Below are positions 3,223-31,891 of a stretch of 64,000 bases of DNA, one piece after another. The stretch comes from an uncultured Anaerolineaceae bacterium (GTDB taxonomy: Bacteria > Chloroflexota > Anaerolineae > Aggregatilineales > Phototrophicaceae). The position numbers and the translations under genes are program-made. The notes under the pieces were generated by a model that searched no databases, was not told the DNA's origin, and saw only the letters and a program-made list of their open reading frames with translations. The stretch covers positions 2,603 through 66,602 of the forward strand of contig CAZDVL010000001.1 in NCBI GenBank assembly GCA_964508745.1. Direction: 5' to 3'. Numbering within the stretch: position 1 is the first letter of the stretch; each line of letters starts with the position of its first letter.

Positions 3223-4130
3223 TGGGCGTGCAGCGCCGCTGCGATCAGCCCGGCGGCGCGCGCGTTGTTGATCAGCAGCGCGGTGTTGGCGCGCCGCGAT
3301 TTGCCCTCGGTCAGCTCCAGCACGCGGCCCAGCACAAACGGCGTGATTTCTTTGCCGTGCACGCCCCGCGCGGCGGCCTCGGCCGTCGCCTGTTCGATGG
3401 CGGCCTCGGCGACGCTGGCCGGCAGTTCGTCGGCGGCGGGCACTGGCACCGCGACCAGCAGCCCGTGCTGCGCCCCTAACTGCCGGGCGGCGGCGATGAT
3501 CTGCGCGGCGGCGGCGGGCGTTTCAACGCGGACATCCACCGGCAGGCCGCTGCTGCGGCTGTAGAACGCCGGCAGCGTGTCTGTTTGCAGCCCGATGATG
3601 GGCACCCCCTGCGTTTCCAGCACCTCAACCGTCAGCGGCAGGTCAAGGATGGACTTCGCGCCGGAGCAGACCACGGCCACGGGCGTGCGGCCCAGTTCGA
3701 TTAAGTCAGCGGACACGTCGAACGGCTGGCCGCGATGCACGCCGCCGATGCCGCCTGTCGCGAACACGCGCACCCCGGCCATGTGCGCCACGATCATTGT
3801 GCCGGCGACAGTGGTCGCGGCGTCCTCGCCCAGGCCGACGGCGATCGGCAGGTCGCGCCGGCTGCACTTGCGCACGCTGCCGGCGGGCCGCTGCGCCAGA
3901 CGCTCGATCTCGGCCTGCGCCAGGCCGACGGTGACGCGGCCCCGCAGCACCGCGATGGTGGCGGGAACAGCCCCGCCGGCGCGAACGGCCTCCTCCATCG
4001 CCAGCGCCGTTTCGAGGTTGATCGGGTAGGGCAGGCCGTGCGTGATCAGGGTTGATTCCAGCGCCACGACCGGCTGCCCAGCGGCGAGCGCGGCGGCTAC
4101 CGGCTGTGCGAAGTCAAGCTCAGGGTTCAT
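3219..4130 (-). CDS. psuG: Pseudouridine-5'-phosphate glycosidase
   Basis: This is a 303-aa ORF (PVVALESTLITHGLPYPINLETA...GGIGGVHRG...DVSADL...), an indigoidine-synthase-A-like family pattern. It is coupled to the downstream PfkB kinase. Confidence 0.9.
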   Translation of the reverse strand: MNPELDFAQPVAAALAAGQPVVALESTLITHGLPYPINLETALAMEEAVRAGGAVPATIAVLRGRVTVGLAQAEIERLAQRPAGSVRKCSRRDLPIAVGLGEDAATTVAGTMIVAHMAGVRVFATGGIGGVHRGQPFDVSADLIELGRTPVAVVCSGAKSILDLPLTVEVLETQGVPIIGLQTDTLPAFYSRSSGLPVDVRVETPAAAAQIIAAARQLGAQHGLLVAVPVPAADELPASVAEAAIEQATAEAAARGVHGKEITPFVLGRVLELTEGKSRRANTALLINNARAAGLIAAALHAQ

Positions 4131-4186: not shown

Positions 4187-4218
4187 GCAAAACGGCCCGC
4201 TCAGTTTCGAGCGGGCCG
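4187..4218 (-). terminator. Intrinsic terminator of the giant gene
   Basis: On the minus-strand RNA a 10-bp GC stem (4209-4218 pairs with 4193-4202) with a 6-nt loop is followed by UUUUG (4192-4188). It lies 43 nt after the stop at 4261. Confidence 0.65.
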
Positions 4219-4260: not shown

Positions 4261-7200
4261 CTACGGGATAACCTGGATGGCGTCCACGTTGAAGCGCAGG
4301 CCAGGCGTGCGGTTTTCCAGGATGATGTGGTGGTTCTGGTTCTGGCCCAGGCCGTAGAACGCGATGGGCGAGAAGTATTTGTACGGGCCGTACTGGCTGA
4401 AGTTGGAACACTGCATTTCGCTGCCGCTCTCCGCCAGACAGACGCGCACGTCGCTGCTGTTGGCGTAGTTGAACTGCTGGTACAGCGTCAGGCCGTTGCC
4501 CCTGATGTACAGGCTGAGGGTCGAGCCAGCGCGGATGGTGAACTGTTCCGTCTTGTTCCACGGGCCGTAGGGCGGCCCGTAGTACACATACGGCGGGGCG
4601 CCCCAGGTGCCCGCCGGGCCGAAGCTGGCGGCGGCGCTGGTGAGCAGCTCGGCGTCGTCGTACATGCCGGGGGTCAGCGGCGCGTTGGGCGCGCGCCCGC
4701 CTGCGCCGTTGTCCACCGTCGCGACATCGCCCATGATTGCGATCGCGTCCACGTACAGCCACTCCCACACCGAGATCGCGCCGTCGGACTGCTGCGCCGC
4801 CGGTTTGAGCTTGACCTCCACCCGGTAGCGCCCGTAAGGCAGGCCGTAGTAGGACTGGCCATACTGGAAGTGCAGCGCCCCCAGCGAGTCGTTGCTGCCG
4901 TTCTGGCAGGTCGGCGCGCCCCAGGCGCTGCCGGTCCACGGCTCGTAGCACACCTGGAAGTCCAGGCCGTAGAGCCACTGCATCGTGCCGATCGAGAAAC
5001 CGGTGCCTTCGAACTCGAACTTCAGCGCCGCGTTGGGGTCCTGCGTGCGCTGCTGGCCGCCGCCCACCGCCCAGGGGTGCTTGCTGATGGGAACCGCGAA
5101 GCCCTGCTGCCAGGCGCCGGTCTGCTGAATGAGCGAGCCGTCGGCGGCGTTGAACAGGTAGTCGTCGTACACGCCCTCGGTGAGCGTGCGGCCGGCGATC
5201 ACCTGGAAGCCCGCCACGTTGAACAGGCCGGTCGTCAGCGTCGAGAAGGTGACGGTGCGGTTGACAGGCGCGCCGCCGCTGTTGGTCAGGCTGAAGACCT
5301 GGAAGCGTGACGCCTGCGCCGTCGTGATGACCTCGCATTTGTCGCGCGCGCCGGTTGTGGCGTCGTAGGCACAGGCCAGAATCTGCGCGCTGTTGCTGTA
5401 GGTCGGGTTGCCGGTGTCGAGCACGATGGTGGTCAGGCCGCCGGCAGACTGGGCCGGGACCTGCACCTGCAGCGTCAGCGCGGAGCCGGGGTAGAGCGGC
5501 GAGATGCGGCCGAGCGGGTCGCCAATGCCGCGGTAGCTCTGGTTGTAGTAGTAGTAAGCGGGCGCGCCCGTGACACGCGCCCAGCGGTTGGACGGCGTGA
5601 ACTGGAGGTAAGGCGCGCTGCCGGCGGCGTCATCGTTGTAGCTGCCGGGCGGCACGACCGGCGGCAGCGCTGTGTTGAACACCTGGACATAGTCCACGCG
5701 CAGGCGCGCCGGGTAGAAGGGGTAGCGGGCGAAGCCGGGGATGTGCTTGGTCAGCTCCGACCTGCCGTCGTTCAGGTTGGCGACATAGGCGCGGTAGACG
5801 CCCGGCGCCAGGCCGCCGACAGTGCGCAGCGTGTAGTAGTTGGGCGCCGGTATCTCGTTCTGATAGTCGTAGCAGTACTCGCCGGTGCCGTCCCAGGTGC
5901 CGTCGAAGCTGGCGTCGGGCGCGTAGCAGACGCGCATCTCGCTGCCGAAGATGTCCACGACCGTGCTGACGGCGAAGCCCGTGCCCTCGAACGTGAACTC
6001 CAGGCTGCCGCCGCCGGTTGTCTGGGCCGACGGCAGTTCGGTCTGGGCGACGCTGCCGCCGCTGTAGACCGGGCTGTTGAGCGTGGTCCAGGCCCCTGTA
6101 AGCTGAAGCGGCGCGCCGGGGTTGGCGCTCATCTGCGTGTTTTCATAGAGGCCCGCGCCCAGCACCAGCGTGTTGATCGTCCGCACTTCAAAGCCGTCCA
6201 CCAGGAAAAGGCCGGGCGTCAGCGTGCGGAAAACGATCAGGTAGTTGCCTGGCGCTGTGACGTTGACGCCGTTCGTCAGCGTGACGTTCTGCTGGCGCGA
6301 TGTCCACATGCCCGGCGTGACCAGCTCGCAGGCGAACTGCGTGTTGGGCGCGTCGGTGCGGCGGTAACAGGCCTGCAGCTCGCGGCTGTTGGCGGCGGAC
6401 TGGTAGCCGGTGTTCAGCGTGACCGTCGTGCTGCCCACCGCCGGCACCGTCACGTGCAGGGCTGCGGCTGCGCCGCCGTAGAGCGGCGAGTACTGCCGGA
6501 GGTCGTTGACAACCGCCGTGTAGCTCTGGCCGGTGTACGCATAGGCCGCTGCGCCGCTGAACGTGCTCCAGCGGTTGGCCGGGGCCGTTTGCAGGTACGG
6601 CCGGCTGTCGCTGGCGGCGGCGGTGTCGTTGTAGACGCCGGGCGGGACCAGCGGCGGCAGGGCGGCGCCGGCGTCAATGACCTGAACGTAGTCAATGACC
6701 AGCCGGGCCGGGAAGATCTGTGTGTTGCGCGGCAGCGTGGGGACAACGACCGATTCGCCGTCGTCGCTGTTTTCGATGCGCACGGTGTAGGTGCCGCGCT
6801 CCAGGCCGGCGATCGTGCGGCTGGTGTAGTAGCTGACGCCCACGTACTCGTTCTGGAAGGTTTCGCACACCTCAGCCGGCCAGCCGGCCATCTGGTAGCA
6901 GACGCGCATCTCGCTGCCCCAGCGGTCAAGCAGGGTGCCAATCGAGATGCCTGTGCCGGTGAAGCTGAAGCTCAGGCTGCCGCCGATGTTCGGCGTGGCG
7001 GGGCTGGCGGGCGGCGGCGTGTCTTTCCTGAACTCGGTGCTGAGGGCGCGCCCGCCCGTGTACGGCGCCAGCGTGATGGTTTTCCAGTCCTCGCTGTTGG
7101 CGTTGTTGGCGACGGTGAACAGGCTGAACGCCGGGCTGTTGTAGGTCTTGATGCCTGTGCCCGTCATCAGGAATTCTTCGTGGACACCTGCCGTCAGCGT

Positions 7201-10200
7201 GCTGCCGGGGATCACCTGGAAACCGGCGATGTTGAAGAAGCCCGGCGTGAGTGTGCGGAACGTCAGGCGGTAGTCTGCGCCCGGCCCGCTGTGGCCGATC
7301 TGCAGCGTCTGGTAGCGCATCGTGCGCATGGTGGTCAGCACGCGGCAGGTCCCGTTGTCGGTGGTGACTGTGCCGTCACCAGCCACCTGATCCACGCATA
7401 CCAGCAGTTGGTCGCTGTTGAGGTAGGACGGGTTGCCGGTGTCGAGGATCACGGTGGCGCCGGGGTCGGTGACGCTCACGCGCAGCGTGGCGACCGGGCC
7501 GACGTAGCGGTTTGTGACGTTGCCAAAGTTGTCAGTGATGCCGGTGAACGACTGGTTCGCGTAGGTCAGGGCGCGCCAGTCGGTGATCTGCCGCCAGCGG
7601 CTGGCGGGCGCGACCTGCAGATAGGGGCTGCCGCCGTCGGTGGCGCTGTCGTTGAAGCTGCCGCTGGCCACCGCCGGGGGCAGGGGGCTGTTGTAGATAC
7701 TCACGTAGTCCACGCGCAGGCGCGGGATGTTCCAGGTGCGCGCCGGCAGCGTCGGGTAGACGGCTGAGCCGTTCGTGTCCAGGTGCCGCGCGCGGACGGT
7801 GTAGCTGCCCGCCGTCAGCGCGTTGACCGTGCGTGCAGTGGTGTAGTTGGGCGCGGCGGTCTCGTTCTGGTAGATGTAACAGCGCGGGCCGGCGGCGTCG
7901 AACAGCGCCGGGTCGAAGGCAGCGCCGCCAAAGTTGGCGCTGATCGTGCCGCTGGCGTAGCAGACTTCCAGCTCGCTGCCGTAGATATCGGTCGTTGAGC
8001 CGATCTCGAAGCCGGTTCCGTTGAAGTCGAACACCAGGTAGTCCCCGGCGGTCGAGGTCTGCACCAGGCTGCCGCCGCTGAACACCGGGCTGGGCAGCGT
8101 GGCCCAGTTGGGCGTGGCTGCGGTCCAGACAGGGATCGTGCCCTGGGGCGTGTTGTTCGCCAGCATCAGGCCGGCGCGCAGCTTGGGGTGCGTTTCTTCG
8201 TAGGTGCCCTCAACCAGCGGGTCGAGGCTGTTGTAGATCGTAACATAGTCAATGACGGCGCTGGCGTAGGGCGGATTGTAGGCGTTGTGCCGCACCAGGA
8301 CTGAGCGCACCCCCATGCTGGGGAATGCGCGCCCGTAAAGCTGCCGCGCATACGAGATTGTGCTGGCCGGGGGCCAGGTTTCGCAGGCCCACGTGCCAGG
8401 GTTGGCGGCGTAGTCGGCGCGGTCGAACTGGCCGTCCTTGCTGCAGATGTCGAGCTGGTTGTAAGGGCTGAGGAACGCGCCGATTTCGACGTAGGCGCCG
8501 TTCATGTAGAACAGCATGTCGGCGTTGTCAACGGTGGTGCGCATGCCGTGAATGGCCGTGTAGAGGCCAGAGGCGAGCGGCGACCAGCGGCTGTCGAACT
8601 GGAGCAGCGGGTTGTCGTCCTCGTGCTGGCCGACGGGCAGCGGGCTGCCGGTGTTGTAGACATCCACCGCGTCCAGGAACAGCACGCTGGCGTTAACCAG
8701 CGTCACCGTGACGATGCGCTCGCTGGTGTCGGGCAGGCGCACGAGCACCGGGTTCTGCTGGCCGAGGACCTGGAGGCAGTTCTGGCCGGGCACAGCCGCG
8801 TCGAAATCAACGCCGCTGGCGCAGATTTCCATCGTGGCCCAGCCGTAAACCGCCGGGCGCACGATGCGCACCAGGTCCACGCCAGAGGTGCGGAAGGCGA
8901 AGCCCGCGCCCTGACGGTACAAACTCATGTCGTAGTTCTTGCCCGAATACGTGACCCAGGGGCCTTCGACGGTGCTCCAGCCGGTGCCAAAGTAGTAGAA
9001 AGGCGTCGTGGTCGGGTCAGCCGTGAACTGTTTGAAGCTGGTTTCGTAGCGCTGGCCCGGCTGGTCCAGCCGCAGCGTCGGGAGCGTGTGGTTGAAAATC
9101 TCAAGCGCGTCGAACTTCATGGTGGTCTGCGCCGGGCTGTTCGGCACGTTGGAGATGACCACGGTGAAGTCAGCCGGCGCGGCGCTGAGGCCGATGACGG
9201 TGCGCGGCGCTTTGTAGAGCGTATACGGCAGATAGTTGTTATAGGTGCGGCAGGTTCCGGTGCTGCGCACCGCGCTCTCAGTGTGATCAAGGCCGGCCAG
9301 CCAGCAGATTTCGGCGCTGCCGGCCAGGTAATCAGTTGTGAAGTAGGCGGCGAAGCCGGTGCCGTTCATCTCGAAGATCACGTTGGCGCCGGCCTCGGTG
9401 GTCTGCCGGGCCGCCAGCCCGGACGCATAGCCGGCGAGCGGCCATTTCAGGTCGGTCCAGACGCCGTTGTAGCGATAGGCCGAGGTCGGGCTGCTGGGCA
9501 GCAGGCTGAATTCCTCATAGTAGCCGGCGGCCAGCGGCAGGCTGCTGTCGAACACGGTCACCTTGTCGAAGTTGAACGGGCTGTTGACCAGGCTGAAGAT
9601 CTCGACTGTGTGCGCGCCGGCTGCCACCCAGCCCGCCGCGAAGTCGCTCTCCCTGATCACCAGCGGGTTGGGGGCGGTGCGCAGGTTATGCAGCACACAG
9701 TAATCGCTCTGCACGCCGGCAGGCCCGCCGCTGGCGCGGTCCACACAGATCAGCGCCTGCTGCGTATCAATGGTTGGGATCGCCACCCGCGACCACTCGA
9801 AGCGGTCGGCGGTGGCCGGAAGCTGGAAGCTGACGAACGGCCCGGCGTTGATGATGCCCCAGGCGACGGTGTGCAGGCTGCGGTTAGAGGCGCGCGCGTC
9901 CACCGTGTTGAACGTCCAGCTATCGTCGCGCCCGTTGCCAAAGACGATCGGCCCGATGATGTCGTTTTCGGTGACGCCGGTGGGCAGCGTTGCGGTGGGC
10001 TGCTGGTCAAAGACCGTGATCGAGTCGACCACCAGGCGCGCGCCAGTGGGGATTTCCTTGATGATCAGGCGCGCTTCGTGCACATCGTTGAGGCCGTTGG
10101 CGAAGCCGTAGAAGGGCCGGAAAGCGCCGAAGGTGGGCAGGTAGACCGCGCCGTCGCCGTTGCGAAATTCCTGGCACACCCAGGCGTTGGCGGCGCTGCT

Positions 10201-13200
10201 GGACGCCCGGACGCACAGATCGTAGACCGCGCCCTTGAACGTGCGCGTCACGTAATCGTAAGCGCCCTCCAGCGTTGTGCCGATGGCGAAGCCGGTTCCT
10301 TTGAACGAGAACTCCAGGTCGTTGGCGGCGGCGGTGGAGGTGGACATGGCGATGCTGCTGGAGGCGCGCACGTCCGTGAGCTGCTGCCAGCTTCCCGCGA
10401 ACAACTGCCGCACCTCCGGCTCGTTCACGTCGTGGACGCCGGGCAGCAGCGGGTCAGATTCGAACAGGATGGAGAAGGCGTCCACGCGCAGCCAGCGGTA
10501 GAGCTGCCGGTTGATGATCTCAACCGTGTGCGCTTCGCCGTCGCGCAGGTCGCGGCAGGAAACGGTGTAGGGCGCGACGCCGTAGTTGGTCAGGCGGTCT
10601 TTGCCCTGGGTCACGTCACGCAGGAAGATGGCGCGCGTGGTGCAGGTAAAGCCCTCTGTCTGGACGCCGCTGGTCAGCGCGCGGCCCCGGCGCTCGCCGT
10701 TGGGCAGCGGCGGGTCCCACGTGAGGTCGCTGCCGTTGATGCGCAGGTCCCAGAAGCCGCCGACGGGGTATGCCTGCATGTAGAGCGTGAAGCCTTCGCC
10801 CACGAAGTTGAACGTGGCCACATCGTCCAGCGCCGTTGTGGTGTGCAGCGTGTTGTTGATGTTCGGCTCGCTGGCCGACGCCGTCCAACTGCCGGGCTTG
10901 GCCGGGTTGAGGTTGCCGTAGCTGAAGGCGAAGCTGGTGTCGTCGTGCAGACCGCGATCCGGGATGCTGCCGACAAGCTCCAGGCGCACCCGGCTGGTCA
11001 CTGTGCCGGGGCCGCCCGGCCCGGCGAACGAGTCGGTCGCCTGATACTCAAAGACCATGAAGCCGCGCTCGTTGGCCGCCGGCGTCAGCGTGATGATGCC
11101 GTCCGGCCCGGCGGCGGTGATGCGGCTCTCAATGTAGGCGGCGGGGTTAGCGCCCAGCAGGTTGGGGTTGTAATTCGGCTCAAACGTGACCTCGCGGCCC
11201 GCGGTGCTGTCGTTCGCCGGCCAGACGGTCACGCTGCCGTAGCTGAACGGGTAGTCCGCCTGAACGCCGCGCGCGGGCGTGCCGGTGTCGCTGCCGGCTT
11301 CGGAGAAGCTGAAGTTGTTGAACTGGACATAGGGGCGCAGCCGCAGCCGAAAGTCGGTCTCTGGCTCGGTGATGAGCCGGTAGGTGGTCCAGGGCGCGCC
11401 GCCTGCCGGCTGGGTGAGGCGTGTGTCCTGTGTCGGGGCGATGTTCACTGTGATCGTGTTCTGCACGGCCGCCCCGGAGGTGTCCCGCGCCTCGTAGGTG
11501 ATGACGACCTGCGCGGCGGGCGCGGTGTAGAAATGCCTTGGCGGGCAGTAGTAGATGTACTGTTTCAGGTCCGACGGAGCGGCCGGGTTCCGGCCCACCT
11601 TCAGGCCCTGGCCGCCGCAGAAATCGGTGGGGTCGGTGCTGAAGTTTTCCGGCAGGGGCGAGACGATGCTGAAGGTGTACGGCTCGAAGCCGCCCTCGAC
11701 GCCGCCGGCGCGCCCGTCGCGTGCGCGCGGGTCAATCAGGAACGCGCCGTTGACCGTGCCCACTGGCTGAACGTCGCCGGGCTGGCCGAAGGTGTCTTCC
11801 TGGCGCGCCTCGTTGGTGATCGGCGTGGCGTTGAGCAGAAGCAGCTCATAGGCGCCGATGTCCGGCACGCCGTTAAATACGCGCTGCCGGCCCCGGAAAT
11901 CCAGCGCCGACGTGAGCACGCTGCCATTGCCGCCGTCTGCGCCGGGGTTCGGGTTGGCGGCGGTGGGCTGGAGCAGTTGGTAATAGAGCGGGTCGGTGAT
12001 CGCCAGGCCCAGGCGCGGGCCGACGAACTTGGCCGTGTTCGGGTCGGCGGCAGGGTAGCCGGGGGCCGGGTTGACCGTCGTCACGTTGTTGTTGCCCGCC
12101 GTGCCCAGCGCCGGGCCACAGTCGCCGCCGGTGCCGGTGGCGGAAATCCAGTTGTTGGTCGCGCCGCTGTCCGGTACGCCGTTAGGCGAGCCATCCGGGA
12201 GGCTGGCCTGGCAGGCCGAGTCGGTTGTCGGGTCGTCGGCCAGGTTGGAGAAGTTGTTGCTAAAGAAGATGTTGTTGTGGATATCCCACTGGTTAGCGCC
12301 GGTCACTGCGCCGCCTGGGCGCCCGCGCACAAGCATCCCCAGAAAGCCGTTGGTGGTGTAAGCGGCGTCGAGCACGTGGCCGACGACCGTGTTGTGCGTG
12401 AAGCGGAAACTGGGGCCGGGGTCCAGGTGAACGAGCGGGCCTTTGGTGGCGTTGTTCAGCAGGATGTTGCTGAACATGTTGACGGTGCCCTGGGCCAGGC
12501 TGTCGTTAAGCACCTGCACCAGGCCTTCGCCGGAATTGCCGGTGAACAGGCTGCGCGCGATCGTGCCGCCGCTGCGGTCAAACGTGATCGCTGCGAACGT
12601 TGCCGGATCGGTCGCCTGAAGGCGCGTGGTATTCGCGCGGAAGGTGTTGTTTTCCAGCAGCGCGCCGCTGCTGTCTGTGAGTTTGATGGCGGATGTGCTG
12701 CTGCTGTCGCTGCCGTTGCCTTCAAACAGCGAGCCGGACACGGTGGCGCCGGCGCTGCTGTCTATTTCCAGCGGCACGGGCAGGTAATACATAAACGTGC
12801 TGCTGCGCAGCGTGCCGCCGGTGGCATAGGCGAAGGCGGCGGCGCGCACGGCCGGGAACAGATCGCCGGCGGTGCCGCCGCGCGGGCGCGTGCCGCGAAA
12901 CTGGAAGCCGCCGACCGTTGTGCCGGTGACGTTGTCGGTGAACACAAGGCCGGCGATGCCGCCGTAGCTGTTGTTGGTAATGATGGTGCTGGCGCCAGCG
13001 CCGGGCATCAGGTCGCTGTAGCTGACGATCTGGATGTTCTGCTTGTTGACCAGAATCGGCGTGACGTATTCGCCGGGCAGCAGCACCACGCGGTCGCCCG
13101 CGAGGGCGGCGGCGATGGCGTGCTGCGGGTGCAGGTAGGGCTGGCTGAAATTGTCGGGCGCGGGCGTCAGGCTGCCGGTCTGCGAGGACACGTACAGCGT

Positions 13201-16200
13201 CCTGCCGCCGAAGCCGTCGCTGAGGGCGGCGCCGGGCAGCGCGGGCCGGACATAATTGGGCTGGCCCAGCACCGGCAGGCCGGCGCCGTAGGTCTGGTCG
13301 AAGCCGTTGCCGTCGCGGTCAATGGCGTGGCCCTGCAAATAATTCTGGAGCGCATTTGCCGCGCCCACGCCGCTGTCGAAGGCGGCCATGTCGGCGTTGG
13401 TGTTGGCGACGAGCAGCGCGGCCATGCCGGCGATGTGCGCGGCGGCGGCGGACGTGCCGTTGAAGCCGTTGGGCGGTGACGGTTCCATGCTGCTGCCAGA
13501 TGCATCGGCGCAGGCGCTGAGGCCCTGGGCGGGGTCGGACGACGAGTCGCCATAAACTGCGATGTGCGACGGGCCGACCAGATTGGGCTTGAACACGTCC
13601 GCCGGGCCGGCGCCGCTGCTGCCGCCAGCGGCATACAGCGGCCCGCGCGAGCTGCTGGGCATAATGGGGTAGGGGTTGCTCTGGCCCTCACTGGCGCGGC
13701 CAGGCAGCGCCGAGCAGGCCGCGCCGACGGTCAGCGCGAAAGTCGAGTCGCCGGGGCGGCCCAGCGTGCGCGTGGTGTTGGCGCTCACGCCGGTCGGATA
13801 GGCGGTAATCGTGCCGCTGGTCTGGAACTGGAGATAGTCGCTGGCGGAGTCGCCGCCAAGCCTGGTAATGGTCGCCGTGAAAACGGTGGGGGCCGTGTAG
13901 CTGCCAGGGATCGTGACCTGCACGCCGGGGTTGGCCGTCAGCGGCACCCGGCTGGCGGCGGGCAGCGTGGCCGCGCCGTCCGTCAGCTCCAACTGGAAAT
14001 TCTCGCGAACAGCGCCGCCGTTCGGGGCGCTGTCCCAGTCGTTCCAGCTCAGCGAAACGGTGTCACCCGCCTGCGCCGTGACCGTGAACGCCATCGTTGG
14101 GCCGGCCCAGTCAAAGCTGGCGTAGCGGTCCAGGTTGTTGTTGCCGGCGCTGGCGATGACCAGCACGCCGGCCTCGCGCGCGGCGCGGATGGCGTCGTGC
14201 GGGGTGGCGGGGGCGGCGGCGCTGTAGCTGGTGTTGCCGTCGGTGCCGTCGCCGGGGCCGGCGCTCACGCCCAGGTCAAGCGTGATCAGGATGATGCGGT
14301 AGCCAGCCGCGCGCGCCGTGTTAATGGCGGCGGTGAGCTGGGCGGCCGTTGTGGCGGGGAAGGTCGCCACGCGGCTGGTGGGGGCGATGTCGCAGATGGT
14401 TTCGACCACACGCGCGCCGTGACTGATGGACGGCCCGACCGCCGCCGCGCTGATCAGGCAGGAACGTTCAGCGACGGGCAGCAGGTTCAGGCCGGTGAAA
14501 TTGGTGTCAATGACGGCGATGGGCACGCTGCCGCCGGTGACGGCGGCCCAGGCCGGCGCGCCGTTAATCACGGGCGGCGTGTGCCAGTCGTTGGCGCCCA
14601 GGATGTCGAGGCTGTGCGGCACGGTGGTGCCCGCGCCGGAGACCAGCACCGGCGCGCCGGCGCTGCTGGCCGCGCTGGATGTCGAGACGGCGCGGGGCGG
14701 CAGCACCACGGCCGCCACCTGCTCCGTGTTGACCAGCGCCTGAATGGCCGTCAGCGGCACGCGGGCCTCTACGGACTTGTCCCCGGTGAAATCGACGATG
14801 CCGCCGACCTGCTCGACCAGCGCGGCCAGCGCCGCCAGCTCAAGATCAGGGGCGGCGTAGACGACAACATTTACGCGCAGCGCGTCGTCGAGCGCGGGCA
14901 TGCCATAGTTTGTGGCCAGCGCGAGCGCGGCCTCTGTCTCGCCGCTCAGGTACAGCTCCAGTACCTCGTAGATGGCGCTGTGCAGTTTGGCGGCGTTGGC
15001 TTCGGTCAGGCCCAGCGGCGCGGGCGTGGCGGTGGGCAGCAGCTCAGCCGGGGTCAGGTCGTAGACGGCGATGTCGTCCAGCAGGGACGCGGCGGCGCCG
15101 CCCGCGCTGAACGCGAGCTGGCCGCTGATCAACGGCGTTTCATCGCTGAAGGTCAGCGCCTCGACGCCGTCCAGCAGCGCGCTGAACGTGCCGCCGGCGG
15201 CGTTCAGCGCCAGCGTGTGCCACGCGCCCGGCGCGAAGCTGGCCGGGACGGCGGCGAGCGGCGTCTGCTCACCGCCGGCGGCGGCGCGGTACAGCGCCAC
15301 CTGCGCGGCTTCCAGCCGCAGCACATACCCGCCGGCGTCGGCGCTGCGGAAGGCGATTTGCAGGCTGCTGCCGGCGTCAGCCAGGCTGAAGCGCGCGTTC
15401 AGGGTGAAATCCGCCAGGTGGACGATTTCCGCCGGCGCCAGCGCGCTGCCGGGGTTGAGCAGCAGCGCCCGGTTGTCGGCGGCGGTTTCGACGACGCTCG
15501 CGCCGTCAGTGACACTCCAGCCGGCCAGCTCGCCTTCAAAATCGGCGGCCAGGACCGGCGCCAGCGCGCCGGGTTCGTCGGTGCTTTCCGGCTCAACAGT
15601 CGCTTCTTCCGTCGCCTCCGGCTCGGTTATCGGCTCGTCGGTGGCTTCGGGCGCGGGTTCTTCGGTGGCCTCAGGCTCCGCCGTCAGCTCTGGCAGCGCC
15701 GTTTCGGTGGGGGCAGGCGCGGTTTCCGTCGCGGGTGGGATGGGCGTGGGCGTTTCGGTGGGCAGCTCCAGCCGGTGAATCACCACATCATCCAGCGCGA
15801 CCGCCGCGCTGCTGTCTGCGCCGGTGATGAACGCCAGCGCGCCGGCGGGCAGCGGCAGCGGGTCCTGGTAGGTGAACTGTACAACGCCGTCCAGGCCGAC
15901 GGTGAGCGTGTCGCCCAGCAGGTGCACGTTGAGCGTGCGCCAGACGGCCTGCGGCTGCTCGCCCTCAGCCAGCGGCGCGGGCTGCGGCCCCTGCGCCAGC
16001 AGCGCGCTGCCGCGATACAGGCTGGCCTGGCCGCTGGCGTCAAGCGTGACGGTGTACTGTTCAGCGCCGGCGCGCAGCGCCAGGCTCACGCTGGCGCCCG
16101 GCTCGACGCGCGCGCGCGCCGCCAGCAGCAGATGCTCCCAGTAGAGGTTGTTGACGGCCGCGCCCTGCGCTGGCCCGACGGCGCTCAGGACGCGGCTGGC

Positions 16201-16584
16201 GCCATCCAGCAGGACCTGCCAGCCAGCGGTGAGCGTCCAGCCGGCGGCGTCGCCGTCCTCAAAATTGTCCTGGAACAGCACCGCGTCGGGCGCCAGCGTC
16301 GCCAGCGGGGTGGGGCTGGCCGGCGGCGCGGCGGTCTCGGTGGCCTCCGGCGCGGCGGTTTCGACGGGCGGCGCGGTTGGCTCGGCGGTGGTTTCTGGCG
16401 CGGCGGTTTCGGCAGGCGGCGCGGTCGGGCTGGCCGTCTCCTCAGCCGGGGGCGGCGGCTCAGCGGTGGTTTCCTGCGCGCGCGCGACATAAGAGGCCGC
16501 TGGCGCGACATAGGTGACGATGAGCGAGATCAGAATAAGTCCGGTCAGAATGGCGTTGACGGCGCGCCGTTGTTCAGGGGTCAT
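4261..16584 (-). CDS. Giant (4107 aa) N-terminally anchored multidomain protein: DUF1080/LamG-like x2, S8 subtilase, beta-helix, Ig-like region, 14 two-Cys beta-rich modules
   Basis: This is a single open frame of 12,324 nt. GGAGG (16597-16593) sits 8 nt upstream of ATG 16584. The gene has its own promoter-like element and its own terminator. Recognisable domains and a catalytic triad occur only in this frame. Confidence 0.9.
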   Translation of the reverse strand: MTPEQRRAVNAILTGLILISLIVTYVAPAASYVARAQETTAEPPPPAEETASPTAPPAETAAPETTAEPTAPPVETAAPEATETAAPPASPTPLATLAPDAVLFQDNFEDGDAAGWTLTAGWQVLLDGASRVLSAVGPAQGAAVNNLYWEHLLLAARARVEPGASVSLALRAGAEQYTVTLDASGQASLYRGSALLAQGPQPAPLAEGEQPQAVWRTLNVHLLGDTLTVGLDGVVQFTYQDPLPLPAGALAFITGADSSAAVALDDVVIHRLELPTETPTPIPPATETAPAPTETALPELTAEPEATEEPAPEATDEPITEPEATEEATVEPESTDEPGALAPVLAADFEGELAGWSVTDGASVVETAADNRALLLNPGSALAPAEIVHLADFTLNARFSLADAGSSLQIAFRSADAGGYVLRLEAAQVALYRAAAGGEQTPLAAVPASFAPGAWHTLALNAAGGTFSALLDGVEALTFSDETPLISGQLAFSAGGAAASLLDDIAVYDLTPAELLPTATPAPLGLTEANAAKLHSAIYEVLELYLSGETEAALALATNYGMPALDDALRVNVVVYAAPDLELAALAALVEQVGGIVDFTGDKSVEARVPLTAIQALVNTEQVAAVVLPPRAVSTSSAASSAGAPVLVSGAGTTVPHSLDILGANDWHTPPVINGAPAWAAVTGGSVPIAVIDTNFTGLNLLPVAERSCLISAAAVGPSISHGARVVETICDIAPTSRVATFPATTAAQLTAAINTARAAGYRIILITLDLGVSAGPGDGTDGNTSYSAAAPATPHDAIRAAREAGVLVIASAGNNNLDRYASFDWAGPTMAFTVTAQAGDTVSLSWNDWDSAPNGGAVRENFQLELTDGAATLPAASRVPLTANPGVQVTIPGSYTAPTVFTATITRLGGDSASDYLQFQTSGTITAYPTGVSANTTRTLGRPGDSTFALTVGAACSALPGRASEGQSNPYPIMPSSSRGPLYAAGGSSGAGPADVFKPNLVGPSHIAVYGDSSSDPAQGLSACADASGSSMEPSPPNGFNGTSAAAAHIAGMAALLVANTNADMAAFDSGVGAANALQNYLQGHAIDRDGNGFDQTYGAGLPVLGQPNYVRPALPGAALSDGFGGRTLYVSSQTGSLTPAPDNFSQPYLHPQHAIAAALAGDRVVLLPGEYVTPILVNKQNIQIVSYSDLMPGAGASTIITNNSYGGIAGLVFTDNVTGTTVGGFQFRGTRPRGGTAGDLFPAVRAAAFAYATGGTLRSSTFMYYLPVPLEIDSSAGATVSGSLFEGNGSDSSSTSAIKLTDSSGALLENNTFRANTTRLQATDPATFAAITFDRSGGTIARSLFTGNSGEGLVQVLNDSLAQGTVNMFSNILLNNATKGPLVHLDPGPSFRFTHNTVVGHVLDAAYTTNGFLGMLVRGRPGGAVTGANQWDIHNNIFFSNNFSNLADDPTTDSACQASLPDGSPNGVPDSGATNNWISATGTGGDCGPALGTAGNNNVTTVNPAPGYPAADPNTAKFVGPRLGLAITDPLYYQLLQPTAANPNPGADGGNGSVLTSALDFRGRQRVFNGVPDIGAYELLLLNATPITNEARQEDTFGQPGDVQPVGTVNGAFLIDPRARDGRAGGVEGGFEPYTFSIVSPLPENFSTDPTDFCGGQGLKVGRNPAAPSDLKQYIYYCPPRHFYTAPAAQVVITYEARDTSGAAVQNTITVNIAPTQDTRLTQPAGGAPWTTYRLITEPETDFRLRLRPYVQFNNFSFSEAGSDTGTPARGVQADYPFSYGSVTVWPANDSTAGREVTFEPNYNPNLLGANPAAYIESRITAAGPDGIITLTPAANERGFMVFEYQATDSFAGPGGPGTVTSRVRLELVGSIPDRGLHDDTSFAFSYGNLNPAKPGSWTASASEPNINNTLHTTTALDDVATFNFVGEGFTLYMQAYPVGGFWDLRINGSDLTWDPPLPNGERRGRALTSGVQTEGFTCTTRAIFLRDVTQGKDRLTNYGVAPYTVSCRDLRDGEAHTVEIINRQLYRWLRVDAFSILFESDPLLPGVHDVNEPEVRQLFAGSWQQLTDVRASSSIAMSTSTAAANDLEFSFKGTGFAIGTTLEGAYDYVTRTFKGAVYDLCVRASSSAANAWVCQEFRNGDGAVYLPTFGAFRPFYGFANGLNDVHEARLIIKEIPTGARLVVDSITVFDQQPTATLPTGVTENDIIGPIVFGNGRDDSWTFNTVDARASNRSLHTVAWGIINAGPFVSFQLPATADRFEWSRVAIPTIDTQQALICVDRASGGPAGVQSDYCVLHNLRTAPNPLVIRESDFAAGWVAAGAHTVEIFSLVNSPFNFDKVTVFDSSLPLAAGYYEEFSLLPSSPTSAYRYNGVWTDLKWPLAGYASGLAARQTTEAGANVIFEMNGTGFAAYFTTDYLAGSAEICWLAGLDHTESAVRSTGTCRTYNNYLPYTLYKAPRTVIGLSAAPADFTVVISNVPNSPAQTTMKFDALEIFNHTLPTLRLDQPGQRYETSFKQFTADPTTTPFYYFGTGWSTVEGPWVTYSGKNYDMSLYRQGAGFAFRTSGVDLVRIVRPAVYGWATMEICASGVDFDAAVPGQNCLQVLGQQNPVLVRLPDTSERIVTVTLVNASVLFLDAVDVYNTGSPLPVGQHEDDNPLLQFDSRWSPLASGLYTAIHGMRTTVDNADMLFYMNGAYVEIGAFLSPYNQLDICSKDGQFDRADYAANPGTWACETWPPASTISYARQLYGRAFPSMGVRSVLVRHNAYNPPYASAVIDYVTIYNSLDPLVEGTYEETHPKLRAGLMLANNTPQGTIPVWTAATPNWATLPSPVFSGGSLVQTSTAGDYLVFDFNGTGFEIGSTTDIYGSELEVCYASGTISANFGGAAFDPALFDAAGPRCYIYQNETAAPNYTTARTVNALTAGSYTVRARHLDTNGSAVYPTLPARTWNIPRLRVDYVSIYNSPLPPAVASGSFNDSATDGGSPYLQVAPASRWRQITDWRALTYANQSFTGITDNFGNVTNRYVGPVATLRVSVTDPGATVILDTGNPSYLNSDQLLVCVDQVAGDGTVTTDNGTCRVLTTMRTMRYQTLQIGHSGPGADYRLTFRTLTPGFFNIAGFQVIPGSTLTAGVHEEFLMTGTGIKTYNSPAFSLFTVANNANSEDWKTITLAPYTGGRALSTEFRKDTPPPASPATPNIGGSLSFSFTGTGISIGTLLDRWGSEMRVCYQMAGWPAEVCETFQNEYVGVSYYTSRTIAGLERGTYTVRIENSDDGESVVVPTLPRNTQIFPARLVIDYVQVIDAGAALPPLVPPGVYNDTAAASDSRPYLQTAPANRWSTFSGAAAYAYTGQSYTAVVNDLRQYSPLYGGAAAALHVTVPAVGSTTVTLNTGYQSAANSRELQACYRRTDAPNTQFACELVTPGMWTSRQQNVTLTNGVNVTAPGNYLIVFRTLTPGLFLVDGFEVRTINTLVLGAGLYENTQMSANPGAPLQLTGAWTTLNSPVYSGGSVAQTELPSAQTTGGGSLEFTFEGTGFAVSTVVDIFGSEMRVCYAPDASFDGTWDGTGEYCYDYQNEIPAPNYYTLRTVGGLAPGVYRAYVANLNDGRSELTKHIPGFARYPFYPARLRVDYVQVFNTALPPVVPPGSYNDDAAGSAPYLQFTPSNRWARVTGAPAYYYYNQSYRGIGDPLGRISPLYPGSALTLQVQVPAQSAGGLTTIVLDTGNPTYSNSAQILACAYDATTGARDKCEVITTAQASRFQVFSLTNSGGAPVNRTVTFSTLTTGLFNVAGFQVIAGRTLTEGVYDDYLFNAADGSLIQQTGAWQQGFAVPISKHPWAVGGGQQRTQDPNAALKFEFEGTGFSIGTMQWLYGLDFQVCYEPWTGSAWGAPTCQNGSNDSLGALHFQYGQSYYGLPYGRYRVEVKLKPAAQQSDGAISVWEWLYVDAIAIMGDVATVDNGAGGRAPNAPLTPGMYDDAELLTSAAASFGPAGTWGAPPYVYYGPPYGPWNKTEQFTIRAGSTLSLYIRGNGLTLYQQFNYANSSDVRVCLAESGSEMQCSNFSQYGPYKYFSPIAFYGLGQNQNHHIILENRTPGLRFNVDAIQVIP
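4264..8226 (-). repeat. Four tandem copies of an A-B di-module (about 1 kb of DNA each): 7204-8226, 6178-7203, 5191-6177, and 4264-5190 (diverged)
   Basis: The anchors ..RLRVDYVSIYN (N2965), ..RLVIDYVQVID (D3304) and ..RLRVDYVQVFN (N3637) give periods of 339 and 333 aa. The A modules share GGSLxFxFxGTGxxxxTxxDxxGSEMRVCY. The B modules share LPPxVxxGxxND...PYLQxxPxxRW...LDTGNPxYxNSxQxLxC...FxTLTxGxFNxAGFQVI. Confidence 0.85.
4264..10971 (-). repeat. Array of 14 consecutive beta-rich modules of about 145-180 aa (aa 1872-4107), each with exactly one Cys pair
   Basis: Every module ends with a h-h-h-D-x-h-x-h strand: RVDAFSILF, VVDSITVFD, FDKVTVFD, FDALEIFN, LDAVDVYN, IDYVTIYN, VDYVSIYN, IAGFQVIP, IDYVQVID, VDGFEVRT, VDYVQVFN, VAGFQVIA, VDAIAIMG, VDAIQVIP. 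Many modules carry x-F-x-F-x-G-T-G-F. Each has two Cys 10-27 residues apart. Confidence 0.8.
10972..11844 (-). other. Two probable Ig-like / putative-Ig (He_PIG-like) domains (about aa 1581-1871)
   Basis: The sequences are GGFEPYTFSIVSPLPENFSTDP...VVITYEARDTSGAAVQNTITVNIAP and ...ERGFMVFEYQATDSFAGPGGPGTVTSRVRLELV. These are beta-sandwich style patterns and the call is weak. Confidence 0.35.
11845..13182 (-). other. Right-handed parallel beta-helix region (about aa 1135-1580)
   Basis: There are repeated N/G/T-rich turns (ITNNSYGGIAGLVFTDNVTGTTVGG..., LENNTFRANT..., SLFTGNSGEG..., IHNNIFFSNNF...). The region ends in FRGRQRVFNGVPDIGAYEL, the DIGAYE-type end I associate with pectate-lyase-like / choice-of-anchor beta-helix proteins. 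Confidence 0.6.
13225..14622 (-). other. Subtilisin-like (peptidase S8) domain (about aa 655-1120) with a large insertion
   Basis: The candidate triad is Asp693 (IAVIDTNF, codon 14508-14506), His722 (ISHGARVVE, 14421-14419) and Ser1045 (FNGTSAAAAHIAGMAALL, 13452-13450). It is preceded by a prodomain-like segment (aa about 526-630). Confidence 0.75.
15055..15555 (-). other. DUF1080/LamG-like domain 2 (aa 344-510)
   Basis: The sequence is LAADFEGELAGWSVTDGASVV...HTLALNAAGGTFSALLDGVEALTFSD...GQLAFSAGG...LLDDIAVYDL. It is a paralog of domain 1, separated from it by an E/P/T/A linker. Confidence 0.55.
15769..16287 (-). other. DUF1080/LamG-like (concanavalin-like) domain 1 of the giant protein (aa 100-272)
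   Basis: The sequence is LFQDNFEDGDAAGWTLTAGWQVLLDG...LDGVVQFTYQD...GALAFITG...ALDDVVIHRL, the typical F-x-D-x-F...W...W-x-V pattern of this fold. The assignment is by eye. Confidence 0.55.
16318..16434 (-). repeat. Imperfect tandem 48-nt repeat (2 full copies plus a partial one) encoding the T-A-P-P-x-E-T-A-A-P-E linker
   Basis: Units 16339-16386 and 16387-16434 align with only a few mismatches (ggtgg....ggcgcggcggtttcg...ggcggcgcggt...). The protein reads ..TAPPAETAAPETTAEPTAPPVETAAPEATETAAPP.. Confidence 0.7.
16495..16560 (-). other. N-terminal hydrophobic signal-anchor / signal peptide of the giant protein (aa 9-30)
   Basis: The sequence is MTPEQRRAVNAILTGLILISLIVTYVAPAASYVARAQE: a positively charged N-terminus, then about 22 hydrophobic residues, then an A-x-A-like site. 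Confidence 0.7.
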
Positions 16585-16679
16585 GAGAAGAGCCTCCAGC
16601 GACCAGCAAGCACAGCAGATGAGGTCAGCACAGCGTTAACTGTGGGCGGATGCGGAACCGTGAAATTCATGTTGAGACT

Positions 16680-16708
16680 ATTATATATGCGCCATTGGCG
16701 ATTGTTCA
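16680..16708 (-). promoter_or_regulatory. Candidate promoter of the giant gene (TGAACA-17 nt-TATAAT on the minus strand)
   Basis: A perfect -10 lies at 16685-16680 and a 4/6 -35 at 16708-16703. Both sit in the AT-rich island between the DUF2344 stop and the giant ORF, which leaves a leader of about 90 nt. Confidence 0.45.
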
Positions 16709-16783
16709 TCAAGATTGCCGCATCTCGATTACCGCTTAATGCCCGGAAGCGTTACGGGCGATTGTGCGAAATTTGTATAGATT

Positions 16784-17464
16784 TTACGGCAGACCGGCGC
16801 ACCAGGGCGTTGTTTCCAGGTGCAGGCGCAGCCGGTGCACGCTGTGCGGCTGCTCGTGGACGCCCAGCTCAGCCAGCAGATCCCTGACGCGCAGGTTGCC
16901 GCGCTCGCCAGCGGCGATGTGTGCCAGCAGGGCGCCGCGCTCGTCCACCGTGAGTTCGTAGATCAGCGGGCGCAGGTCGGCTGAACGCGCCCGGCCTTTG
17001 TGCTCGCTGTGCTGCACGAGCGCCTCGGCGCCGAGCAGCGCGGCGACGCGGGCGCGCAGCTCGTCGGGTGCGGCGCCGTCGCTGAAGCGAATCTGGTATT
17101 CGGCGCTGCGCACCAGCGGTTGAAGCGCCGGCGCGCCGAGCGGCATTTCGTGGATGGCGTAAACGCGCAGCCCTTCCGGGCTGACCGCCGCCAGCCGGCC
17201 AGCTAACGTGCCCGGCGCGGTGGGCGCGCGCAGCGACACATCGAGCAGCTCGCACTCGCTGGTGATGCCCAGCGGCAGAGCGGACGCCAGCGCCATGCGC
17301 GGGCGGGTGTTAAAGCCGTGCGAATACTGAATGGGGATGTCGGCGCGGCGCAGCACGCGCTCCCAGATTTTCGCCAGGTCCAGGCTGCTGGTGTATTTCA
17401 AAGGGCCGGACTTGCCGAAACGGATCGCAAGGCGCTGTTGGGTGGGCTGGTGCTGGCTGCTCAT
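16784..17464 (-). CDS. Radical-SAM-associated protein (DUF2344 / TIGR03936-like)
   Basis: The sequence is MSSQHQPTQQRLAIRFGKSGPLKYTSSLDLAKIWERVLRRADIPIQYSHGFNTRPRMALASALPLGITSECELLDV.... I chose the inner ATG at 17464 (track start 17509). TATAAT (17477-17472) ends 7 nt before this ATG. Confidence 0.8.
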   Translation of the reverse strand: MSSQHQPTQQRLAIRFGKSGPLKYTSSLDLAKIWERVLRRADIPIQYSHGFNTRPRMALASALPLGITSECELLDVSLRAPTAPGTLAGRLAAVSPEGLRVYAIHEMPLGAPALQPLVRSAEYQIRFSDGAAPDELRARVAALLGAEALVQHSEHKGRARSADLRPLIYELTVDERGALLAHIAAGERGNLRVRDLLAELGVHEQPHSVHRLRLHLETTPWCAGLP

Positions 17465-17610
17465 GCCGCACATTATATCGCTACCAGTAAGGACATATGT
17501 AAGGTACAATCATCCTAGCACACAGGGCTGGCAGCCGGCCGCCGCGCGGCCGGCAGTTTCCGCCTGAACAGCGTATTCAGACCAGGGCCAGCAGCTTGCA
17601 GGGAAGGGCC

Positions 17611-18084
17611 ATGCGCGCGCGACAGACACAGCCAAAGCCGGCCTCCGCCGCCAGCCATGCGCGCCAGACACGGCGGCAGATTGTCCTGCCGGTGCTGGCG
17701 GGCGCGGCGTTAATCGCGCTGCTGGTCGGCGTTGTGCTGTGGTTGCCGCAGCGCCTGCAGGTGGGCATTGTCTCTGATTTCATGCTGACCGTGTTTATGC
17801 TGTGCCCGGCGGTGATCTGTCTGCTGCCGCTGACGATCCTGCTGCTGGTGGCGGCCTTTGGCGCGGGCCGGCTGCACGACCGCGCCGCGCCGCCGCTGCG
17901 CGGCCTGCAGGCACGCAGCGGGAAGCTCGCCGGGCTGGCAGATTCGGCTGCCGCGACAGTTAACCAGCGCACGGTCGTCTATGGGGCGCGGTTGGGCGCT
18001 GCGCTGCGTGTGCTGGATATTTTTGAAGACCCGCGACCTACCGCGACTGATGGAGAAGGCAAGGATGAACAAGGCACAGAGTGA
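17611..18084 (+). CDS. Hypothetical membrane protein (2-3 TM helices)
   Basis: I chose the inner ATG at 17611, which is preceded by GGGAAGG. Hydrophobic helices are IVLPVLAGAALIALLVGVVLWL and FMLTVFMLCPAVICLLPLTILLLVAAF. Third positions are GC-rich. Confidence 0.6.
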   Translation: MRARQTQPKPASAASHARQTRRQIVLPVLAGAALIALLVGVVLWLPQRLQVGIVSDFMLTVFMLCPAVICLLPLTILLLVAAFGAGRLHDRAAPPLRGLQARSGKLAGLADSAAATVNQRTVVYGARLGAALRVLDIFEDPRPTATDGEGKDEQGTE

Positions 18085-18322: not shown

Positions 18323-18344
18323 GCGCGTTCAAGGGGATGCTGAA

Positions 18345-27413: not shown

Positions 27414-27625
27414 CAGCATGATTGATCTGCACACACCAATTAGACACGTAAAGCCTTGCTATCGCATCTATCAGCAAGGCATTCAAAAACCGAACTGCCG
27501 CTATCAATCAACCGGGAATAGTATGACTCAAAACTGCGTGGTTGACGAATTAATCTAGTGAAGTCGTTACCGAAGCGCCCTTTTTCAGAGGCAACTGTCT
27601 ACAGTAACGGTATTCGGTTTGTTTG

Positions 27626-31722: not shown

Positions 31723-31757
31723 ACCTGCCATTAAGGTGCGGGGTGTACCTGATTGAG

Positions 31758-31865: not shown

Positions 31866-31891
31866 CACACGAAACGCAGCGAACGAGCGAA

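Follow-up and report, generated by a model that had tools for sequence, protein, structure and literature searches.

A conserved giant gene of Anaerolineae predicted to encode a multidomain S8 subtilase with 14 C-terminal beta-rich modules

The giant gene and its family

The DNA analysed here, referred to as the window, is a 64,000-nucleotide stretch from an uncultured Anaerolineaceae bacterium (GenBank assembly GCA_964508745.1, contig CAZDVL010000001.1, positions 2,603 to 66,602). A single open reading frame (ORF) on its (-) strand, window 4261..16584, starts with ATG and encodes a protein of 4107 amino acids (aa), which is the subject of this report and is referred to as the giant protein. 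From the N- to the C-terminus it consists of a predicted signal peptide, two LamG-like domains with their linkers, a prodomain-like unit, a subtilase domain of peptidase family S8, a beta-helix, two Ig-like segments and 14 beta-rich modules (Table 1). We infer that it is a matrix- or wall-associated extracellular protease.

The G+C content of the window is 63-72%, and since spurious long ORFs are common in such GC-rich DNA, the codon-position signal was checked. In all 300-codon windows along the giant gene, the G+C content was 0.86-0.95 at third codon positions (GC3) and 0.46-0.63 at second positions (GC2), matching that of bona fide neighbour genes. Two long ORFs lie antisense to the gene at 8548-13479 (+) (1643 aa) and 13564-16887 (+) (1107 aa). 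Neither has the coding GC3 signature; they are shadow ORFs of the kind typical for high-GC DNA. The DNA repeats within the gene share 60-80% identity only, with a period of about 980-1060 nt, and no near-identical repeats were found in a DNA repeat comparison of the gene, making repeat-driven collapse, chimerism or misassembly unlikely. At the protein level, the internal repeats were seen after fragmentation of the query, while self-blastp of the whole protein returned the self-match only.

In the cluster of the giant protein (P0154-P0159), the identical 4107-aa product was found in separate NCBI and ENA assemblies, and variants of 4143 aa, longer by 36 residues, are present in ENA and Logan assemblies. 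One JGI/IMG assembly has the protein divided between two genes on a single contig, coding for 922 and 3175 aa, a split that probably arose from a frameshift or sequencing error. The giant gene is thus confirmed to be real and intact. The single 12.3-kb gene proposed in an earlier sequence-only reading of this DNA is borne out by the uniform coding GC3, the Pfam domains and the same product in independent assemblies; of the chimerism that it had named as a refuting case, the low-identity repeats and the independently assembled identical product gave no sign. The protein is acidic and rich in Thr and Asn, in keeping with export from the cell. Low lysine was considered as a feature of protease resistance and rejected, because lysine is low genome-wide in this high-GC host. 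In public annotation, members of the family are named 'S8 family serine peptidase' or 'hypothetical' only.

The size of the family was estimated by an exhaustive profile search of 1.84 billion representatives, giving 456 clusters at E<=1e-3 and 81 at E<=1e-30; a word-indexed search with the last two modules (M13-M14) found 4 matches only. Many of the 456 clusters represent proteins of 3500-5400 aa with 14-19 modules, about 50 share the full collinear architecture at 25-50% identity, and an alignment of 14 full-length sequences was collinear to the last residue. When one genome per GTDB species was scanned, 63 loci were recovered, about 50 of which are family members, nearly all labelled as Chloroflexota class Anaerolineae and many as Aggregatilineales/Phototrophicaceae. 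The rest are unrelated S8 matches in Dehalococcoidia. Two members carry unexpected record titles, Chloroflexia (L026) and Bacteroidetes (L041), the latter probably a mis-binned contig. The nearest relative is that of isolate CHLO-14, with 84% identity. More than 30 genomes carry intact ORFs of 3200-5035 aa, the complete chromosome CP146238.1 and multi-Mb contigs among them, and each complete chromosome or multi-Mb contig recovered has one locus. The survey of related genomes suggested by the earlier reading thus yielded collinear orthologues of 3200-5000 aa in about 50 Anaerolineae genomes.

The order of genes around the locus, histidine kinase, 334-aa gene, FtsK, SRAP, about 155-aa gene, DUF2344, giant gene, psuG and psuK, is kept in 13-21 of 38 loci. 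Between these loci the giant protein is 27-38% identical while the syntenic neighbours are 50-78% identical, so that it evolves about twice as fast as these housekeeping neighbours, again in keeping with an exported protein. Such divergence within conserved synteny indicates a vertically inherited, fast-evolving core gene. Conservation is highest in the protease core and in modules M1-M3, M5 and M13-M14, and lowest in M6-M10, the zone in which the number of modules varies (9-19 modules across members). A literature search for a paper describing this giant S8 family found general remarks on giant genes of Anaerolineae only. Such genes occur frequently in this class and are presumed to code for surface proteins (PMC10608941).

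Domains of the predicted protein

The catalytic domain matched Peptidase_S8 (PF00082) at 39.6 bits against a cut-off of 21.8, and the family profile matched subtilisin BPN' at E=3e-10. Four catalytic motifs were recognised, AVIDT (D693), SHG (H722), AGN (oxyanion N815) and GTSAAAAH (S1045). The triad D693/H722/S1045 had been placed correctly by the sequence-only reading, and N815 is added here. The D-H-N-S tetrad is invariant in the 14 aligned homologues, and about 88 of 90 complete members of the family retain it. By these sequence criteria the giant protein is a member of peptidase family S8, and the pattern of retained residues demonstrates, as far as alignments tell, purifying selection of the protease for catalysis. 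In one homologue of 4424 aa (P0013), A-T-D-A replaces the catalytic D-H-N-S, and this protein is a probable pseudoprotease version.

Two parts of the protease region were absent from the earlier parse. One is an insert of about 110 residues between N815 and S1045, predicted to form a beta-sandwich. A PA domain gave no match in the Pfam scan at E<=1. The other is the prodomain-like unit between the second LamG-like domain and the catalytic domain. An AlphaFold2 model of aa 528-1135 (608 aa) had a predicted local distance difference test score (pLDDT) of 56 overall, and of 57-86 in the stretch aa 528-645, where the helices and strands given in Table 1 are followed by about 55 disordered residues. 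The best PDB fold matches of this model were ProN-Tk-SP (PDB 3AFG), the top match for the protease region, CspA/CspB/CspC and unprocessed pro-subtilisin E; those to the Csp proteins reached E 1e-8 to 5e-7 with template modelling (TM) scores of only 0.3-0.4, on a model of pLDDT 56. A PDB search with the N-terminal 1873 aa as a single sequence gave nothing useful. The family profile aligns with pro-subtilisin E from propeptide residue 29, that is, into the prodomain-like region, and BPN' residue 7 aligns at profile position 129, about aa 656. The start of the BPN' alignment places the mature N-terminus at about aa 645-650 (TTVPHS versus SVPYG). On the basis of the model and these alignments, aa 528-645 is a probable subtilase prodomain.

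The C-terminal part, aa 1873-4107, is composed of 14 consecutive beta-rich modules of 141-180 aa each, as had been read from the sequence and as confirmed here by iterated profile search and motif landmarks. The landmarks are a G-x-Y/F/H-E/D-E/D start, a conserved Trp, F-x-F-x-G-T-G-F, two Cys and an h-D-x-h-x-h end. Modules M2, M4, M6, M7, M9, M11 and M13 are of A-type and M8, M10 and M12 of B-type, with M3 and M14 weakly similar to the latter; M1 and M5 are unique. M7-M12 form three A-B pairs sharing 33-47% identity between pairs in fragment BLAST. The conserved acidic pair of G-x-Y-E/D-E/D close to the N-terminal strand and the conserved Asp of the last strand may resemble the structural Ca site of carbohydrate-binding modules (CBMs).

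No family matched any of the 14 modules in the Pfam scan, the CBM families and CE2_N remaining unmatched at E<=10, and the module profile matched none of the PDB sequences. An AlphaFold2 model of M7 was a beta-sandwich (pLDDT 70; predicted TM score, pTM, 0.72), for which the best PDB matches by Foldseek were CBM6, CBM35, CBM36 and the jelly roll of two-domain CE2-type esterases, together with the C-terminal jelly rolls of subtilases KP-43 and SubHal. Distant sequence relatives recovered with the module profile overlap Pfam CE2_N (P0119 with 28.2 bits, cut-off 27.9, as well as P0132 and P0112). Taken together with the M7 fold, this points to the modules as an unnamed branch of the galactose-binding-like jelly-roll superfamily, a placement by modelled fold and remote homology and not by family membership. 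The earlier statement that the modules fit no named family therefore holds at the level of direct family matches, including the search module by module, which hit no characterised family; at the superfamily level a placement has now been reached. Weaker copies of the module occur in unrelated giant proteins of 3200-5150 aa (P0098, P0099 and P0132), accompanied by fn3, PKD, Big_2/5/9, cadherin-like and dockerin domains. The module family is thus wider than the S8 architecture, and probably extends beyond Chloroflexota.

Between the protease and the modules, Beta_helix (PF13229) matched aa 1259-1407 at 32.1 bits against a cut-off of 25.9. The helix closes with the motif D-x-x-G-x-x-R...DIGAYE, in agreement with the earlier description of a beta-helix ending in this motif (at 1575). 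Around DIGAYE (aa 1550-1581), the choice_anchor_Q model (NF041518) stayed under its cut-off of 25 with 19.2 bits, a resemblance only. Along aa 1136-1550 the residues invariant in the 14 homologues are G, P, A, Y, N, S, F, W and C only, without any invariant D, E, K, R or H, which suggests that the helix is structural and neither a lyase nor a hydrolase. A pectate-lyase-like or polysaccharide-active beta-helix was rejected since no conserved acidic or basic catalytic residues were found among these homologues. The two Ig-like segments that follow, also described before, gave weak Cadherin_5 and tandem-95 matches here (1826-1854); the equivalent segment of homologue P0105 matched significantly (Cadherin_5, 6e-7; Big_9, 3e-6).

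Ahead of the protease, the two DUF1080/LamG-like domains recognised by the sequence-only reading were recovered by Pfam above the cut-offs, with Laminin_G_3 (PF13385) at 37.7 bits (cut-off 27.6) and 3keto-disac_hyd (DUF1080, PF06439) at 32.5 bits (cut-off 26.8) in two stretches. The two domains are 36% identical to each other in fragment BLAST. All 36 Cys of the giant protein are invariant in the 14 homologues, with exactly two per module, which fits one disulfide in each and an oxidising extracellular setting.

At the N-terminus, aa 7-34 is the sole qualifying membrane-like hydrophobic segment of the protein; a 19-aa window at 2624, which lies in a beta module, also passes the hydropathy cut-off. 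The hydrophobic stretch is immediately followed by a small-x-Ala↓Gln-Glu/Asp junction in 72 of 87 long relatives and fragments; most of the remaining 15 are truncated at the N-terminus or unrelated. Ala occupies position -1 in 67 of the 72, and position -3 is mostly V/A/L/S/T. Beyond the junction the sequence reads Gln-Glu/Asp-(Ala/Ser/Thr)-Thr-Glu-Glu-Pro, and ahead of it lie a basic n-region and an h-region of varying length (about 12-25 residues). A conserved junction behind a helix of variable length is the signature of a cleavage site for signal peptidase I, and from this pattern aa 1-36 would be a cleavable signal peptide (ARA↓QE) and not an anchor. The giant protein is, most likely, secreted and released from the membrane; the earlier description of an anchored, membrane-tethered protein is not upheld. 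The same reading had noted that a C-terminal sorting signal was absent, and indeed no LPXTG-like motif, PEP motif or C-terminal hydrophobic segment was found in the 4107 aa, which end in ...VDAIQVIP.

Table 1. Features of the giant gene and its flanks (window positions; aa numbering of the giant protein)
Feature	Position	Strand	Remarks
Promoter-like TGAACA-17-TATAAT	16680..16708	(-)	motif scan; -10 and CTTGATGA block invariant in L001, L002
Shine-Dalgarno GGAGG	16593..16597	(-)	8 nt before ATG; TGGAGGCTC invariant in three species
Coding sequence	4261..16584	(-)	4107 aa + stop; 433 kDa, pI 4.6
Sec-type signal peptide, aa 1-36	16477..16584	(-)	predicted cleavage ARA↓QE; family-wide A↓Q-E/D junction
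Pro/Thr/Glu/Ala-rich linker, aa 37-94	16303..16476	(-)	short tandem DNA repeats
LamG/DUF1080-like domain 1, aa 95-285	15730..16302	(-)	second stretch of Pfam 3keto-disac_hyd match
Pro/Thr/Glu-rich linker 2, aa 286-340	15565..15729	(-)	sequence
LamG/DUF1080-like domain 2, aa 341-527	15004..15564	(-)	Pfam Laminin_G_3, 3keto-disac_hyd
Prodomain-like unit, aa 528-645	14650..15003	(-)	two helices, beta-alpha-beta-beta-alpha-beta, Ser/Ala/Gly linker with conserved A-x-STSS
S8 subtilase catalytic domain, aa 646-1135	13180..14649	(-)	D693, H722, N815, S1045
Beta-sandwich insert, aa 831-940	13765..14094	(-)	about 8 predicted strands, pLDDT 60-88
Right-handed parallel beta-helix, aa 1136-1600	11785..13179	(-)	ends in DIGAYE (1575-1580)
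Two Ig/cadherin-like segments, aa 1601-1872	10969..11784	(-)	Cadherin_5, tandem-95 matches
M1, unique type, highly conserved, aa 1873-2043	10456..10968	(-)	45.5% mean identity, 17 invariant columns
M2, A-type, aa 2044-2195	10000..10455	(-)	
M3, divergent, weakly B-like, aa 2196-2348	9541..9999	(-)	
M4, A-type, aa 2349-2500	9085..9540	(-)	
M5, divergent, aa 2501-2646	8647..9084	(-)	
M6, A-type, aa 2647-2787	8224..8646	(-)	
M7, A-type, aa 2788-2967	7684..8223	(-)	module modelled
M8, B-type, aa 2968-3128	7201..7683	(-)	
M9, A-type, aa 3129-3306	6667..7200	(-)	
M10, B-type, aa 3307-3471	6172..6666	(-)	
M11, A-type, aa 3472-3639	5668..6171	(-)	
M12, B-type, aa 3640-3799	5188..5667	(-)	
M13, A-type, well conserved, aa 3800-3954	4723..5187	(-)	
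M14, terminal, best conserved of all, aa 3955-4107	4264..4722	(-)	20 invariant columns
Intrinsic-terminator-like hairpin	4189..4218	(-)	10-bp perfect stem, 6-nt loop, TTTT

Expression signals and genomic surroundings

The three expression signals proposed earlier for the giant gene are all present, though the promoter needs qualification. The GGAGG lies at 16597-16593, within a ribosome-binding site (TGGAGGCTC) that is invariant in the window and the two closest species. After the stop codon, the arms 4218-4209 and 4202-4193 form a perfect 10-bp stem with TTTT at the 3' side; the terminator scan demands at least 5 T and thus did not list this hairpin, which was read from the sequence. The TGAACA-17-TATAAT element was found once in the 13.7 kb scanned, against 1.0 expected from shuffles, and since this is the chance level the count alone proves nothing. 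Its TATAAT and the adjacent CTTGATGA block are, however, invariant in the two closest species (L001 and L002), and position and conservation support its designation as a promoter-like element.

Between the DUF2344 stop codon and the promoter-like site there is a non-coding block of about 75 nt (window 16710-16783 (-)), which hardly differs between the window and L001 and is for the most part kept in L002 (75% protein identity). The Rfam scan of the giant gene and its flanks, this block included, gave no match. The block may serve for binding of a regulator or form a small structured element.

Downstream of the giant gene lie psuG (Indigoidine_A family) and a PfkB kinase gene (psuK), window 2305-4130 (-), and upstream DUF2344, SRAP peptidase and FtsK genes, window 16784-21547. 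These flanking genes have no evident functional link to the giant gene. An operon with DUF2344 or with psuG/psuK was considered and rejected, given the gene's own promoter-like site and terminator and the housekeeping nature of the neighbours. Further away, window 26136-41470 contains genes for an rpoD-type sigma factor, an ABC transporter with its ABC_transp_aux partner, argC/argD/argJ-type genes and carB. The surrounding region is core housekeeping, which fits a chromosomal, non-mobile context.

Proposed working, rival roles and known systems

Based on the domain organisation, we hold with moderate confidence that the giant protein is a Sec-exported, active multidomain S8 subtilase, held at the filament surface through glycan-binding modules and engaged in protein digestion or matrix remodelling. 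The sequences show an intact and conserved gene, selection for catalysis, an export signal, lectin-fold domains at both ends of the protein and paired Cys; the scheme that we infer comprises signal-peptide cleavage, autoprocessing, glycan binding and a physiological substrate. The signal peptide of 36 residues would be removed at ARA↓QE, leaving no transmembrane anchor. The prodomain-like unit would act as a chaperone for folding of the catalytic domain and, by analogy with other subtilases, an autocatalytic cut would follow near aa 640-646. This cut would yield an N-terminal piece of about 61 kDa, containing the two LamG domains and the prodomain, and a piece of about 368 kDa with the protease, beta-helix, Ig-like segments and 14 jelly rolls; the two pieces may remain associated, for which Csp proteases are a precedent. 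A rigid spacer may be formed by the beta-helix and Ig-like segments, while the 14 CBM-like modules, each presumably stabilised by a disulfide, together with the LamG domains could provide multivalent binding to a glycan-rich surface, either the host's own wall or matrix or a polymeric substrate. The active protease would thereby be held at the filament surface for protein digestion or matrix remodelling.

Several findings weigh against this scheme. The prodomain-like region by itself gave no Pfam or PDB sequence match and no inhibitor I9 match, and since, in addition, the 608-aa model is poor, autoprocessing is an analogy and not a result. The fold matches of M7 are weak (E 2e-3 to 2e-2, TM 0.35-0.47), and sugar-binding residues were not identified in the modules. 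The h-region here is long, about 22 residues, and is also compatible with a signal anchor. Finally, a single-copy gene at a fixed core-genome position across the order is no less compatible with a structural role in the envelope than with that of a feeding enzyme.

This last point leads to the main rival, in which the protein chiefly builds up a surface structure of the filament (sheath, S-layer-like coat or long fibrils) and the subtilase only matures or cuts its own precursor. We regard this role as unlikely and yet to be taken seriously. It agrees with the single locus at a fixed position (DUF2344-psuG in 13-21 of 38 loci, with relatives 27-38% identical), with a mass more than half of which consists of non-catalytic beta-modules, each with a probable disulfide, and with the conservation of M13-M14 and M1-M3, which equals that of the protease core as expected for interfaces of assembly or attachment. 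The number of middle modules (9-19) varies as in a length-adjustable stalk, and self-cleavage by S8 domains has been proposed in other giant proteins (bioRxiv 10.1101/2023.11.21.568195). Against it, no SLH or other wall-binding or lattice-forming domain was found in the Pfam and NCBIfam searches, and conservation of the tetrad in nearly all members is also required of a working exo-protease. The strict conservation of catalytic residues therefore fits both a surface-held active protease and a structural block. Sheath, S-layer, adhesion and polymer-processing roles had been suggested by the sequence-only reading and are candidates here too.

A bolder form of the structural proposal, which we consider doubtful, is that the family represents the clade-defining envelope protein of Aggregatilineales-type filaments: a self-processing polyprotein that its subtilase would cut into the LamG piece and a stalk of about 80-100 nm (beta-helix, Ig-like segments and jelly rolls), with the stalk assembling into an outer coat or sheath. 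If true, a single conserved gene would open the cell surface of monoderm-like Chloroflexota to study.

It is rather improbable that, in line with the membrane tether of the sequence-only reading, aa 9-30 remain as an uncleaved signal anchor, by which the whole 433-kDa protein would be tethered N-terminally to the cytoplasmic membrane and project outward; we hold this to be the weakest of the serious models. The hydrophobic stretch is indeed long, likewise in several relatives, and no other anchor signal was found in the protein; the junction, however, is near-universal while the stretch varies from about 12 to 25 residues, and even if an anchor were kept, prodomain autoprocessing would free the protease and the modules. 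We see only a slim chance that adhesion or aggregation is the chief role of the protein, with its lectin-like modules gluing filaments to each other or to particles and proteolysis as a secondary activity. The many tandem lectin-fold domains are as expected for such a role, the source organisms dwell in aggregates and biofilms according to record titles (sludge, reactors, groundwater), and giant genes of Anaerolineae have been generally tied to surface proteins and aggregate growth (PMC10608941). Adhesins are, however, usually variable in presence or copy number rather than fixed core genes, and the catalytic residues here are strongly constrained. An artefactual origin of the long ORF, through chimeric assembly or as a frame open by chance, might be suggested by the 1643-aa ORF on the opposite strand and the 922 + 3175-aa split in one JGI assembly, but is effectively refuted already by GC3 of 0.86-0.95 throughout, the Pfam domains, collinear orthologues in about 50 genomes, the identical product in independent assemblies and the lack of near-identical internal repeats.

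Sludge, reactors, sediments and groundwater harbour Anaerolineae as one of their most abundant groups of filamentous bacteria and, to our knowledge, almost nothing is known of the cell surface of this class or of how its members attack polymers. The family described here, large, conserved and confined to a single locus, is a marker of one order-level lineage. It combines a protease with a long lectin-like array and is therefore a candidate enzyme or scaffold at the filament surface. The module, an unnamed domain family for which 1.84 billion proteins yielded about 450 representative clusters, merits a profile model.

Among known systems, the cell-envelope proteinases of Gram-positive bacteria (lactocepin PrtP and C5a peptidase ScpA; both S8) are alike in being exported multidomain S8 enzymes with an insert in the catalytic domain and a long train of beta-sandwiches that holds the protease off the cell. 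They mature by removal of the prodomain. In contrast to the giant protein, they are of about 1100-2000 aa and carry a C-terminal LPXTG or wall-binding region. The giant protein has no PA match, its insert between N815 and S1045 being another beta-sandwich, and it carries two LamG domains before the prodomain and a beta-helix plus 14 unnamed jelly rolls after the protease. It is thus not one of these Gram-positive enzymes, even if it would work like them and would count, in the broad sense, as a cell-envelope or extracellular proteinase.

The best fold matches to the prodomain and catalytic region include the Csp subtilases, which come from clostridial spores. CspB (PDB 4I0W) retains its bound prodomain once autoprocessing has taken place, and its subtilase domain carries an inserted jelly roll (PMC3567191). 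The Csp proteins differ in size (about 550 aa), in being intracellular or spore-associated, in acting on SleC and in belonging to an unrelated organism group. The likeness of Csp and Tk-SP to the prodomain and inserted jelly roll is at the structural level only, and the Csp match was obtained with a low-confidence model. Tk-SP and KP-43/SubHal, fold matches to the protease region and to the module, respectively, are of about 430-660 aa, with one jelly roll instead of 14 and neither LamG nor beta-helix. CBM6, CBM35, CBM36 and CE2_N share the beta-sandwich fold with the modules, and distant module relatives overlap CE2_N; the modules differ in the conserved Cys pair within each module and in having no direct family match.

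The giant S8/C39 proteins of Omnitrophota are likewise very large and exported, with a subtilase that might cut the precursor, and differ in their size of 7000 to more than 39,000 aa, their many transmembrane segments, their SecA-like and glycan-active domains and their link to predation (bioRxiv 10.1101/2023.11.21.568195). None of these transmembrane-rich, SecA-like, glycan-active or predation traits is seen in the giant protein. Multidomain exported subtilases as such are well known, and no new principle is involved here; what is new is the size, the combination of domains, the conservation throughout the lineage and the unnamed module family.

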